DNA of 64,000 nucleotides, from positions 42,038,001 to 42,102,000 of the forward strand of contig OZ076409.1 in the NCBI GenBank assembly GCA_964187785.1, written 5' to 3'. The position numbers and the translations under genes were made by a program. Below the pieces are notes generated by a model. The model saw nothing but the letters and a program-made list of their open reading frames with translations, searched no databases and was not told the DNA's origin. The stretch is from Amphiscolops sp. MND2022. Its lineage: Eukaryota. Below are positions 54,839-56,986 of the stretch, one piece after another (the first letter of the stretch is position 1; each line of letters starts with the position of its first letter).

Positions 54839-56986
54839 TCATATTGGAGCAACAAAGCTCTGTACCGAGGGATATAGTGATTCCTCTTTTTGTTTTAGGA
54901 TTTGGAGTTCTACTCCTTTTTCTTCGTCTTCTGTTTTTACCCTTTTGTCTTCAATGCTATCCTCGAAAGGGGCCCGCGGGGTAAATACGGAAGTTAAAAC
55001 AGAGGTAAAGAAAAGGTTGTACGAAGCACTGAGCAAGGTTTTAGTGAAGCTCAGTGTGTTACCTGTAAGGTGACGAAGTTCGAAGTAGCGGAAGACTAGT
55101 ACCGTGATATCTATGACGAACTTGATAAAAAGGAAAGCGCCAAAGTACGCTCCGCAGAGTTCTAGTACATAAGATATACTTCCGAATGTTTCGAGGAACT
55201 GATTTTTAAAGTAGTCGGGTGAAATCATTCCGTCGACATAGAAATCTGTACGAGGTGCGTAATACGCGAAGGATTCTGGTCCGCTGTGGGCCATGGAGGG
55301 TATGATGAGCTCTCTTGAGAACTTCTGGAGGGCATTACGTGATGCGGCGCTGATGAGGATGTTGTCCCAAAACTCGGAGAGTTGTTTGGGAGTGTACATT
55401 CCCGCGTCCTGTGATCCTGGGAAAGATCTGGTAATCATTGGCTGGATGTCTTTGGGTCCGAAGATAGCAGGCCGGTCCCGATGTTCGGGTGAAGGTGTAA
55501 GGGTGAACCAGGAGTCCTTGTCTTCCATGTCCAGTTGGAAGAGGTTCTTAATACGATCTGTGCAGTTTTGTACGTTCGCGTTAGGATATGTTTGTCGGGT
55601 TATGGGGTCTACAAAGGCGACCACTCCCTTGTAGAAGATTGGTATGCGGTCGTAGCATTGGTTCATCGTGTGAAGAGGTGAGTGGGATTCCGGGCAGTGG
55701 TAGAGCCATGCGAGGCTACCATCTGTGTTCAGGAACATCGAGCGATTTCCCGTGAGCATGTATCCGGCGAGTCGTGGGTTTTCCATGGATAACATCAGGA
55801 TGGTAAGGATTTGTGTTCGTTCTTGCTCACATTGAGCTTTCAATAGCTGGATCTCTGAAGCTTCGAGTAAGCGGGTGCTCTCAAAGAAGAGATAATCTAA
55901 CTTGGTTCCTTGGTGGAGTTCGTAATCCATGTTGAGATAATGTGGTGTGTTGGGGTTGGAGTCGCTGGGGCCTCTGAAGAGGTGGAGTCTGCCATTACCA
56001 GAACCATCGTTGGGTGAGTAATATTGAAGTTTGGAGGTTTCTCCCATGGAGATGCCGAGTCGTCTGCCAGAAGTCATGTCGAAGCCACCAAATTGGGTCG
56101 AAACGTAGAGGGATTCGTAATTGGTAGGGTAGACATCATCGGGTTTGTTGCAGTATTTCTGTGGCCTGTTGTATATTTCGAATAGGAACTTGGTAGTGGA
56201 GTCGTTGCCGCTAACTATATAGTAGTTAGAGCCATGTTTGATCATATTCACTATTTCTTTTCTGTGGACTGCGAGCACGCAGTTATCTGGCTCTGCCCAT
56301 GTATAGGCGTACGGGTCCAATGACGTGGTTTCGCAGCCGAGTTGTTCCAGGGGGCAGGGGAGAACCATCTGGAAGGGTGTGAGGATTTTCCCGTCTCTGG
56401 TTTTGACTGATAATTCTACGTCTTGAATATGAGATTCGAAGGTTTCGCGTTTAATCCATCCGCCTGTCTTGCACTCATTACGGGTATCAGGGTCACGTAC
56501 TCCATCCCAACTTTTTCCGTATTTGGCGTTTCTCGTCTGTACTTGTTTGACTCCTTTCTTAAATTTGAGGGGTTGTCCATGGATCATGACTTCTTTGCCT
56601 TCGCCCATGGCCTTACAGGTTTCGGGTGACAAGGAAATATCGCTGGTGATTCCGTTGTGTAGGATTGACATACTGGAGTGGTCATTATGACCACAATGCC
56701 ATTCTTCACTCTGGTGTTTCACACGGCACATAGTAGCGTTGATAGTGCGACGAAAGTGTTTAGTGTATAACGTCACGCTAGCACGACTTACTTCTAAGTT
56801 TTCCGGGGCCACATTGCATTGCTCTACTTGATTCAAGGCGTAGAGCTTATTTTGTGTCATTTCGCCGCAGTCGAAATGAGTTACTCGCAATTTTTTAGCA
56901 ACGCTAGCGAGGTTTGGCGTTGAACGTTGTGAGTTCACAACGGGCGCGAAATTGGCGCATAAGAAGAGTAAGAAAAATAATTTCAT
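54839..56986 (-). CDS. env: Envelope-like type I membrane glycoprotein, chuvirus/gB-like class III fusogen, 715 aa
   Basis: Signal peptide MKLFFLLFLCANFA; Cys pattern FDC...L.QVEQC...C...HCGH..HS...C and C...CY..IPI...FVDP.TR...C; N-glycan sequons (NAT, NDS, NRS, NCT); C-terminal hydrophobic anchor (YVLELCGAYFGAFLFIKFVIDITVLVF). Confidence 0.85.
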   Translation of the reverse strand: MKLFFLLFLCANFAPVVNSQRSTPNLASVAKKLRVTHFDCGEMTQNKLYALNQVEQCNVAPENLEVSRASVTLYTKHFRRTINATMCRVKHQSEEWHCGHNDHSSMSILHNGITSDISLSPETCKAMGEGKEVMIHGQPLKFKKGVKQVQTRNAKYGKSWDGVRDPDTRNECKTGGWIKRETFESHIQDVELSVKTRDGKILTPFQMVLPCPLEQLGCETTSLDPYAYTWAEPDNCVLAVHRKEIVNMIKHGSNYYIVSGNDSTTKFLFEIYNRPQKYCNKPDDVYPTNYESLYVSTQFGGFDMTSGRRLGISMGETSKLQYYSPNDGSGNGRLHLFRGPSDSNPNTPHYLNMDYELHQGTKLDYLFFESTRLLEASEIQLLKAQCEQERTQILTILMLSMENPRLAGYMLTGNRSMFLNTDGSLAWLYHCPESHSPLHTMNQCYDRIPIFYKGVVAFVDPITRQTYPNANVQNCTDRIKNLFQLDMEDKDSWFTLTPSPEHRDRPAIFGPKDIQPMITRSFPGSQDAGMYTPKQLSEFWDNILISAASRNALQKFSRELIIPSMAHSGPESFAYYAPRTDFYVDGMISPDYFKNQFLETFGSISYVLELCGAYFGAFLFIKFVIDITVLVFRYFELRHLTGNTLSFTKTLLSASYNLFFTSVLTSVFTPRAPFEDSIEDKRVKTEDEEKGVELQILKQKEESLYPSVQSFVAPI

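Follow-up and report, generated by a model that had tools for sequence, protein, structure and literature searches.

The DNA analysed here (the window) is a stretch of 64,000 nucleotides of the Amphiscolops sp. MND2022 genome, which carries on its minus strand an open reading frame of 715 amino acids (54839..56986, ATG at 56986 and stop at 54839) with no internal stop. On the basis of the reading frame, Pfam, hydropathy, predicted fold and dN/dS, it is predicted to encode a class III (gB/chuvirus-type) envelope glycoprotein (env). The carrier of env is a 17.8-kb element with long terminal repeats (LTRs) of about 1.5 kb, in which Pfam domains in the order protease, reverse transcriptase (RT), RNase H and integrase lie upstream of env, on the same strand and within the LTRs. 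The pol frame (60004..64000, minus; ORF and Pfam), with RT, RNase H and integrase, runs past the window end into protease and is open over 1854 amino acids in all; among 26 PDB sequences its RT matched Ty3 RT best (E 2e-33). Repeat comparison placed the 3' LTR, TGTCGC...GCGACA, of about 1.49 kb at 51700..53191 (minus) and its 5' partner outside the window (L021:3988-5485). Directly before the 3' LTR lies a short purine run containing a G run, a putative polypurine tract (53192..53205, minus), and 3 nt past the LTR we found an 18-nt primer-binding site (51679..51696, minus) complementary to a genomic tRNA-Met(CAT); this site belongs to a partial tandem repeat, and the identical sequence also follows the 5' LTR. 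All six other copies are flanked by 4-bp target duplications, and their LTR pairs are 99.5-99.9% identical in five cases and 96% identical in the sixth. No target duplication was seen for the window copy, whose 3' side runs into the truncated tandem repeat. By its LTRs, target duplications, primer site, polypurine tract and pol order, the element is a Ty3/Gypsy (Metaviridae) LTR retrotransposon, in agreement with the Gypsy carrier named in a preliminary description of this DNA.

The truncated tandem repeat measures 5117 bp, is 99.8% identical to the 5' end of the element and has the 3' LTR in common with it. It contains gag (49209..50660, minus) and the protease with the start of pol (48086..49278, minus), both identified by ORF and Pfam, and at the gag stop the slippery heptamer T TTA AAC (49215..49221, minus), a predicted site of -1 frameshifting into pol. 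The heptamer was present in 8/8 gag ends inspected, including that of a related element on a metagenome contig (L067), and in the 70 nt that follow the heptamer no stable hairpin was detected (z 0.5 to 1.1 relative to mononucleotide shuffles). In the window copy the 5' gag is divided between two frames; several near-identical copies have gag, pol and env without interruption between their LTRs, so that an intact coding set is a property of the family. Upstream of env, a repeat of about 170 bp present in three copies (57059..57533) was recognised from the sequence, and a putative splice-acceptor-like site follows it near 57034.

The env protein begins with a hydrophobic stretch at residues 1-19 (mean 1.55), and by hydropathy only a signal peptide is predicted at about residues 1-23 (56918..56986, minus). 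A single membrane-length segment with a hydropathy peak of 2.09 marks the predicted anchor region at about residues 603-637 (55076..55180, minus), beyond which a tail of about 78 amino acids remains. The protein has 16 cysteines, 14 of them in the ectodomain, and four N-glycosylation sequons. Thus the signal peptide, Cys-rich ectodomain, membrane anchor and tail named in the preliminary description were all recovered, signal peptide and anchor as predictions from hydropathy, its two quoted motifs are present as written, and the lack of a furin site of errantivirus type was borne out, with no RxxR in the 715-aa sequence scanned and a gB fold predicted. The protein matched the Pfam family PF24664 (Monjiviricetes_fusion) at 107.8 bits (cut-off 27; E 5e-31). 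Of 4133 candidates, 280 were homologues at E<=0.001, and each of the 14 ectodomain cysteines was kept in more than 90% of the aligned rows. Searches against sequences of solved structures, with the single protein or a profile as query, gave nothing significant, and the family assignment therefore rests on Pfam and the fold; an Atlas search with env returned matches that were all below 0.9 and serve as leads only.

The ectodomain was modelled with AlphaFold as a monomer from an alignment of 102 sequences (pLDDT 80.6, pTM 0.59). The long helix that had been proposed before the AGYMLTGN motif appeared in the model at residues 332-377, corresponding to env 355-400. In a Foldseek comparison with the PDB, herpesvirus gB accounted for 35/35 of the matches listed (best E 1.3e-12), with whole-chain TM-scores of only about 0.30 between the monomer model and solved gB. 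Against BFVD the best matches were chu-related, Tacheng tick virus 4 and xinmovirus glycoproteins (E 5e-30 to 6e-27), to whose chuvirus-type sequences env is only 12-17% identical. VIA aligned the model with VZV gB (Z 12.1, rmsd 15.4, 436 aligned) and with gB domain IV alone (Z 9.4, rmsd 3.5, 164 aligned). A class III, gB/chuvirus-like fold predicted for env is thus supported by the model; the chuvirus/gB-like class III glycoprotein of the preliminary description stands on PF24664 together with the gB and chuvirus-type fold matches, and the AlphaFold and Foldseek comparison it had suggested, in which a fold other than class III would count against it, returned gB. The predicted fusion-loop tips, placed from the cysteine spacing and in part by analogy with VSV G, are polar and His-rich (C98-GHNDH and C172-KTGG), and the positions flanking them stay hydrophobic (W96, M106, W177, I178). 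Many relatives, like the insect C1 rows in the literature, have a hydrophobic residue at the loop tip, unlike the polar tip here. The GHNDH/GHHDH tip recurs in several env clusters that are 44-60% identical, which argues that it is conserved and not decayed. Furthermore, eight env cysteines of domains I-II (between 87 and 279) are conserved in relatives and align by eye with the Insecta_C1 rows, a correspondence of sequence rather than of bridges read from model coordinates.

In addition to gag, pol and env, the element carries six extra ORFs under purifying selection that flank env: four lie in the 3.0-kb gap between pol and env, and two lie downstream of env. In the gap, orfA (128 aa, 59609..59995, minus) has no Pfam match or known family and is kept in related families with dN/dS of 0.07-0.23. 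An antisense ORF of 214 aa (58805..59449, plus), with an acidic Ser-rich N-terminus and a conserved C-terminal part, is likewise found in related families, and its dN/dS is 0.07-0.38 where measurable, with dS near saturation. Then follow orfC (131 aa, 57898..58293, minus; dN/dS 0.02-0.18), assigned to no known family after a Pfam scan and comparison of related families, and orfD (113-114 aa, 57564..57908, minus; dN/dS 0.09-0.18), placed in no known family by comparison of related families. Among 16 young copies, orfC variants were 17 synonymous against 3 nonsynonymous, and those of orfD in young copies were 4 against 5, which is not significant; an Atlas search with orfC gave no usable match. 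Profile matches among orfA, orfC and orfD were weak (E 0.0015, 0.0055 and 0.11) and we do not claim paralogy, and weak Pfam matches on the accessory ORFs and the pol linker (E 0.07-0.2) were taken as chance. Downstream of env, orfE (54205..54807, minus; dN/dS 0.05-0.20) is a 200-aa open frame lacking an early ATG, for which a spliced start may be supposed; its stop overlaps the ATG of the last ORF before the 3' LTR, and by eye ORFs similar to orfE follow env in the metagenome relative. Taken together, the six accessory ORFs likely encode proteins serving the element.

The last ORF (53306..54208, minus) encodes a 300-aa TRAF-domain protein with a PAM2-like motif, a coiled coil and a TRAF-C/MATH domain, recognised by Pfam (MATH_2, E 9e-12) and by comparison with TRAF5/TRAF4 in the PDB (E 2e-7 by sequence, 4e-11 by fold), with dN/dS of 0.17-0.21. 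TRAF2-6 carry an N-terminal RING and zinc fingers; neither gave a Pfam match in the 300-aa ORF, whose N-terminus is predicted to be disordered and then helical. A stop-free TRAF-C lies about 1 kb downstream of env in 17/17 of the top env copies, and the order of orfE and TRAF is retained in families further removed (env 48-64%). The PAM2 motif is the ligand of the MLLE domain of poly(A)-binding protein (PABP), with the consensus L-x-x-x-A-x-x-F-x-P. Against this textbook consensus, a PAM2-like motif is found at residues 5-14, with a chance of 4e-4 in the first 20 residues. It is present in 6/12 homologues of the TRAF ORF, the remaining six being those without that N-terminus, and in one of two copies of a 74% family, and is absent from distant families. 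Pfam PAM2 was not reported for the TRAF ORF, and a relative gave only E 0.095, under the cut-off. A complex of the first 33 residues of the TRAF protein with the MLLE of host PABP was predicted at 0.32 against a mark of 0.34, which speaks neither for nor against binding. The most likely role of the RING-less TRAF protein would be that of a decoy or adaptor in the TRAF-dependent immune or death signalling of the host.

The COX1 codon usage of the animal agrees with the invertebrate mitochondrial code (AGR=Ser, AAA=Lys, ATA=Met), which by the code tables speaks against cnidarians, ctenophores, sponges, ascidians, echinoderms, rhabditophoran flatworms and vertebrates as the host lineage. The genome of the animal itself contains 64 env matches, and 42 of the 48 full-length ones are without a stop. 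Between subfamilies the dN/dS of env is about 0.04-0.05; the intact frame of the preliminary description is therefore matched by purifying selection. In the 17 top env copies the distinct variants were 23 synonymous against 9 nonsynonymous or stop (neutral synonymous share 0.23, P 5e-9), where ranking of the copies by protein similarity favours few amino-acid changes; the pattern fits lineages that need env at each round. Some env copies are recombinants of older subfamilies, and the copies examined in context all lie inside LTR elements. In about 20 short matches TRAF is represented by its 3' half alone; the one examined has lost most of env. The element is young, multi-copy and recently multiplied.

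The reading that we consider probable is that the locus holds the intact env of a recently multiplied 17.8-kb Ty3/Gypsy element, whose predicted class III Env likely coats particles and enters other cells, germ cells included. Gag and Gag-Pol would be made through the -1 frameshift at T TTA AAC, and env and the accessory ORFs would be expressed from spliced or re-initiated messages. Env itself may be an uncleaved, single-pass, trimeric fusogen, and new insertions would arise through re-entry into cells, so that the element would resemble an enveloped endogenous retrovirus, passing from cell to cell and carrying host-modulating accessory genes. Purifying selection shows that env is used and does not show by which route, and an env-deleted derivative exists, with similar short matches being numerous, so that env is not required in cis for every insertion. 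A genuine class III Env might accordingly work without free particles, in cell-to-cell contact or fusion or as a block to re-entry, while the element replicates intracellularly. We regard this as unlikely: env is still under selection in the youngest copies, and the confinement of the copies examined in context to LTR elements would suit a role in spreading the element itself. The polar loop tips, together with the dependence of herpes gB on gH/gL and gD, would agree with an Env that has kept the gB fold and no longer fuses alone, being an attachment or scaffold protein or needing a partner; the recurrence of the His-rich tip across clusters and the intact cysteine skeleton and long central helix make this quite improbable.

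The origin of env was weighed in the same way. The closest viral folds are those of chuvirus-type and xinmovirus glycoproteins and the Pfam family is Monjiviricetes_fusion, as would be expected if this Gypsy lineage had taken env from a chuvirus-like RNA virus in this host, in a recent and independent capture. Against such a capture, which we hold to be very improbable, stands the low identity to those viral proteins. Moreover, env and RT identities fall in step across families (97/98, 76/84, 63/80 and 39/68%), and in the metagenome relative, with 68% identity in RT and 39% in env, gag, pol and env are still together. The pairing of pol and env is therefore old and not a capture private to the host. 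None of 119 pattern matches was confirmed as a viral contig encoding an env relative, and envs of this type are reported from across the animal phyla in a published survey (PMC13524379). TRAF was not seen in the 3.4 kb after env in the metagenome relative. Trees of RT, env and integrase, built from 7-8 rows, left nearly all branches unsupported, and the comparison of families uses pairwise identities only. The independent acquisition of env by Gypsy stated in the preliminary description holds in so far as its origin differs from that of the Drosophila F-type env, and does not hold as an event private to this host. A more far-reaching reading, possible though doubtful, is a Gypsy lineage with complex-retrovirus organisation: an infectious endogenous virus with a gB-type envelope and six accessory genes under selection, in which the captured RING-less TRAF would be dominant-negative on innate signalling and dock by PAM2 on poly(A)-binding protein, and the His-rich, non-aromatic fusion loop would represent a distinct class III trigger.

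A gB/Chuviridae-like env in Gypsy elements was described by Chary and Hayashi (eLife 2026) as widespread and ancient across animals, and a mosquito BEL/Pao Chuviridae-like glycoprotein was stated by them to adjoin gypsy POL as well (PMC13524379). The acquisition is thus not the novelty that it first seemed: a gB-type env in a Gypsy element is already published, env alone is one more member of a kind published in 2026, and the less ordinary part is the accessory ORFs, which the preliminary description did not mention. The whole element matters more than env. The HSV/gB-type errantiviruses of that survey share with it the Gypsy pol, a downstream gB-fold env with signal peptide and membrane anchor, multiple near-identical copies and no requirement for a furin site, whereas here env lies 3.0 kb past pol in a 17.8-kb element with extra ORFs, and its loop tip is without the hydrophobic residues of their C1 rows (PMC13524379). 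The filters of that study allowed 1 kb from POL to ENV or a 3-5 kb downstream search; TRAF and accessory genes go unmentioned in its main text, its element table has no occurrence of the primer-site sequence of this element, and the Xenacoelomorpha names tried do not occur in its text and supplements (PMC13524379). Accessory cassettes can escape surveys that set short limits on the distance from pol to env, and the conserved cassette found here indicates that gB-type Gypsy elements can carry likely host-modulating genes. Entry by gB-type elements was called unknown by the same authors (PMC13524379), and an element that is young and multi-copy, with env strongly constrained, offers a good natural system for the question of fusion or cell-to-cell carriage by a gB-type Gypsy Env.

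Among other known systems, the Drosophila gypsy/ZAM errantiviruses likewise place gag, frameshifted pol and env between LTRs, and their soma-to-germline spread is a model for the mechanism (PMC13524379), but their env is of the F type with furin site and fusion peptide, in contrast to the class III fold without RxxR here. Glycoproteins of Chuviridae and Xinmoviridae (PF24664) agree with env in a profile score above the cut-off and in the best viral fold matches; they differ in sequence, as noted above, and belong to negative-strand RNA genomes, not to a DNA provirus-like element. The Anakin elements, with a chuvirus-derived glycoprotein (Dezordi et al. 2020, PMC7642597), have the same broad glycoprotein type in an LTR element with near-identical LTRs, whereas their carrier is BEL/Pao and ours is Ty3/Gypsy, with a Gypsy-type domain set and a Ty3-nearest RT. 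No Gypsy element with a gB-type env and TRAF or PAM2 appeared in the titles and abstract openings searched, a set that leaves Repbase and most subscription journals outside its reach. Burro/GYPSM1 of planarians (Arkhipova and Yushenova 2019, PMC6431247) is also a giant Gypsy element with env homology and a MATH_TRAF_C domain, the latter as a separate accessory ORF in one species. Its env is a homologue of gypsy Env, in frame between gag and pol within a polyprotein of about 4,900-5,100 aa, whereas the env described here is of gB type and stands apart, with TRAF as the terminal ORF. The presence of a TRAF domain in a second large Gypsy lineage of different build, after Burro, suggests that TRAF-dependent signalling of hosts has exerted pressure repeatedly.

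The ORF proposed in the preliminary description as a class III envelope glycoprotein (env) lies at the coordinates given there, on the minus strand from an ATG at 56986 to a stop at 54839 (715 aa), with a hydrophobic, signal-like N-terminus, a single membrane segment at about residues 603-637 (hydropathy), a cysteine-rich ectodomain (14 cysteines counted) and, again as described, no furin-type site (RxxR count of zero). It carries four sequons and matches Pfam Monjiviricetes_fusion with 107.8 bits (cut-off 27), while sequence searches against solved structures gave no significant match. 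The AlphaFold model of residues 24-600, built from an alignment of 102 natural homologues (mean pLDDT 80.6, pTM 0.59), contains the long helix noticed earlier, as a 46-residue central helix. Fold comparison, which had been named as the test able to refute a class III fusogen, upheld that class for the predicted structure. In Foldseek against the PDB, all 35 matches listed were herpesvirus gB (best E 1.3e-12, TM about 0.30), and VIA aligned the model with VZV gB (Z 12.1, rmsd 15.4, 436 aligned), isolated gB domain IV (Z 9.4, rmsd 3.5, 164 aligned) and rabies G (Z 7.1, rmsd 6.0, 174 aligned); the high whole-chain rmsd likely stems from domain orientation in the monomer model. At 12-17% identity, and with E from 5e-30 to 6e-27, the best-matching predicted viral structures were those of chu-related, Tacheng tick virus 4 and xinmovirus glycoproteins. 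The class III call thus stands. Cutting the other way, the tips of the loops after C98 and C172, which from cysteine spacing and analogy to VSV G we take to be the fusion loops, are polar; this loop tip recurs across several clusters 44-60% identical, and F, W, M or Y takes that position in other relatives.

The carrier, in a genome of 1.07 Gb (window G000:C1:42038001-42102000), is a Ty3/Gypsy element of about 17.8 kb, extending from a 5' LTR beyond the window (3988-5485 of the adjoining stretch, L021) to a 3' LTR at 53191-51700, with LTR termini TGTCGC...GCGACA. Target duplications of 4 bp flank each of the six further copies examined; in five of these the two LTRs share 99.5-99.9% identity, and in one 96%. 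An 18-nt stretch of primer site complements a genomic tRNA-Met(CAT), and pol is a single PR-RT-RNase H-integrase frame whose best solved match is Ty3 RT. Since T TTA AAC occurs at the gag stop in 8/8 gag ends listed, a -1 frameshift is predicted. In the window copy 5' gag is divided between two frames. Its 3' LTR also serves a truncated tandem repeat carrying gag and protease (48086-51699; 48086-53196 with the LTR), which is 99.8% identical to the element's 5' end; this repeat was not found in the six other copies compared and is either an assembly artefact or a genuine rearrangement. Within the LTR, a splice-donor-like site (52553-52562) and, further on, an acceptor-like pyrimidine tract immediately 5' of the gag ATG (50666-50700) also occur in close families, and gag may come from a spliced message.

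The genome holds at least 64 env matches, a lower bound because 62 of 8803 candidates were scored; 48 of them span residues 1-715 and 42 of these 48 are stop-free, in agreement with the intact frame reported earlier. Between subfamilies env dN/dS is 0.04-0.05 (Nei-Gojobori, pairwise to the window copy, dS saturating in distant families). The 17 top copies carry, as distinct variants, 23 synonymous versus 9 nonsynonymous or stop (neutral synonymous share 0.23), a figure that somewhat exaggerates the effect because copies were ranked by protein similarity and some are mosaics, one having env dS 0.006 and pol dS 0.79. Mosaics L026-L028 and L038-L040 have pol dS of about 0.8 although their env is near-identical to that of the window, which shows that subfamilies have recombined. 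In endogenous retroviruses, env selection in young copies is a classic sign of spread through cell re-entry, and by analogy the selection seen here suggests that this element spread likewise.

The preliminary description had also proposed an independent env acquisition by this lineage. As a recent capture private to the host, this looks unlikely: RT and env identities drop in parallel across families (98/97, 84/76, 80/63 and 68/39%, taken as rank order only, the trees being unresolved), which argues against it. In addition, a metagenome scan yielded seven loci, and the one examined, L067, has gag, pol and env, an identical slippery site and, judged by eye, two orfE-like ORFs; TRAF was not found in the 3.4 kb available there after env.

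Six accessory ORFs accompany env: orfA (128 aa), an antisense ORF (214 aa), orfC (131 aa) and orfD (113 aa) between pol and env, and orfE (a 200-aa frame) and a TRAF-domain ORF (300 aa) downstream. Of six diverged copies examined, five have all six ORFs in the same order, and one, with env at 60%, retains orfE and TRAF alongside other small ORFs. Against the five, dN/dS is 0.05-0.38 where measurable. Across 16/16 young copies, synonymous versus nonsynonymous variants number 17:3 in orfC, 6:2 in orfE, 8:8 in TRAF (P 0.012) and 4:5 in orfD (not significant). In the 74% family, orfC and the antisense ORF are separated by an additional 176-aa ORF (L049:4128-4658), without significant Pfam match.

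The TRAF ORF lacks a RING and matches TRAF4/TRAF5 by sequence (E 2e-7) and by predicted fold (E 4e-11, model pLDDT 65.9). It lies downstream of env in 17/17 top env copies and diverges far faster (TRAF/env identity 57/96, 35/74 and 24/60%). Twenty stretches around other TRAF matches comprised eight distant env-orfE-TRAF elements, three close family members, one env-deleted derivative, one with an integrase match only and seven without an env or pol match. A PAM2-like pattern at its N-terminus (residues 5-14), kept in 6/12 homologues and one of two copies of the 74% family and absent in distant families, is a lead rather than a result. The orfE stop and TRAF start overlap as ATGA (54205-54208), a layout that permits termination-reinitiation. 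About 20 short TRAF matches and L088 hold the 3' half of the domain only; L088, the single such copy examined, has env and pol mostly deleted, and these copies are likely a non-autonomous derivative family. Multi-copy TRAF-like open frames in L070-L075 and L089, 26-28% identical to the element's TRAF, had no env or pol match in the 10 kb available; they are possibly a host expansion or carried by another mobile element, and a possible donor family.

Elsewhere in the window, a separate Gypsy element (583-14757, minus strand) is bounded by LTRs of 3.16 kb that share 99.6% identity and encodes gag and, in a frame of 1610 aa, pol, with no further ORFs of at least 130 aa found on its strand; its RT is only 31% identical to that of the env-bearing element. 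Decayed gag/protease-like fragments at 26019-32516, flanked by repeats that are 85-94% alike and spaced by about 5.6 kb, gave a weak Pfam protease match only and are presumably a BEL/Pao remnant. The window also holds a tandem array of a 24-bp unit (31248-31556), a DDE_1 transposase fragment (36361-37266, Pfam E 1e-19) and exons of a host gene for queuine tRNA-ribosyltransferase (38758-41306, minus strand).

That the element is a complex-retrovirus-like, infectious, gB-enveloped Gypsy with six selected accessory genes, a RING-less TRAF blocking innate signalling, PAM2-PABP docking and a distinct His-rich trigger seems to us, taken whole, rather improbable. A gB-type env in a Gypsy element is already a known headline (Chary and Hayashi, PMC13524379). 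In the accessible part of that survey, the insect C1 env rows have eight-cysteine spacing like that of the window env, by eye, and a mosquito BEL/Pao Chuviridae-like glycoprotein also adjoins gypsy POL; the BEL/Pao case is covered by Dezordi et al. (PMC7642597), as far as the available portion goes. The survey's gap filters, as given there, would tend to pass over an env 3.0 kb beyond pol, and the window primer-site sequence is absent from its element table, though the family may still be in the survey set. Troyka identity (Kojima, PMC12440569, available in part) misfits the TG...CA ends and 4-bp duplications. Planarian Burro elements combine MATH_TRAF_C with env homology, according to the accessible part of Arkhipova and Yushenova (PMC6431247), so precedent exists for TRAF in a large Gypsy; among titles and abstract openings of the accessible literature we found no publication joining gB-type env and TRAF in one Gypsy element. 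On the features tested, and with its fusion loops and trimeric state putative, the element belongs with and works like the gB-type env-carrying Gypsy elements, and what is new here is its accessory cassette, whose TRAF domain is under selection and evolves fast.
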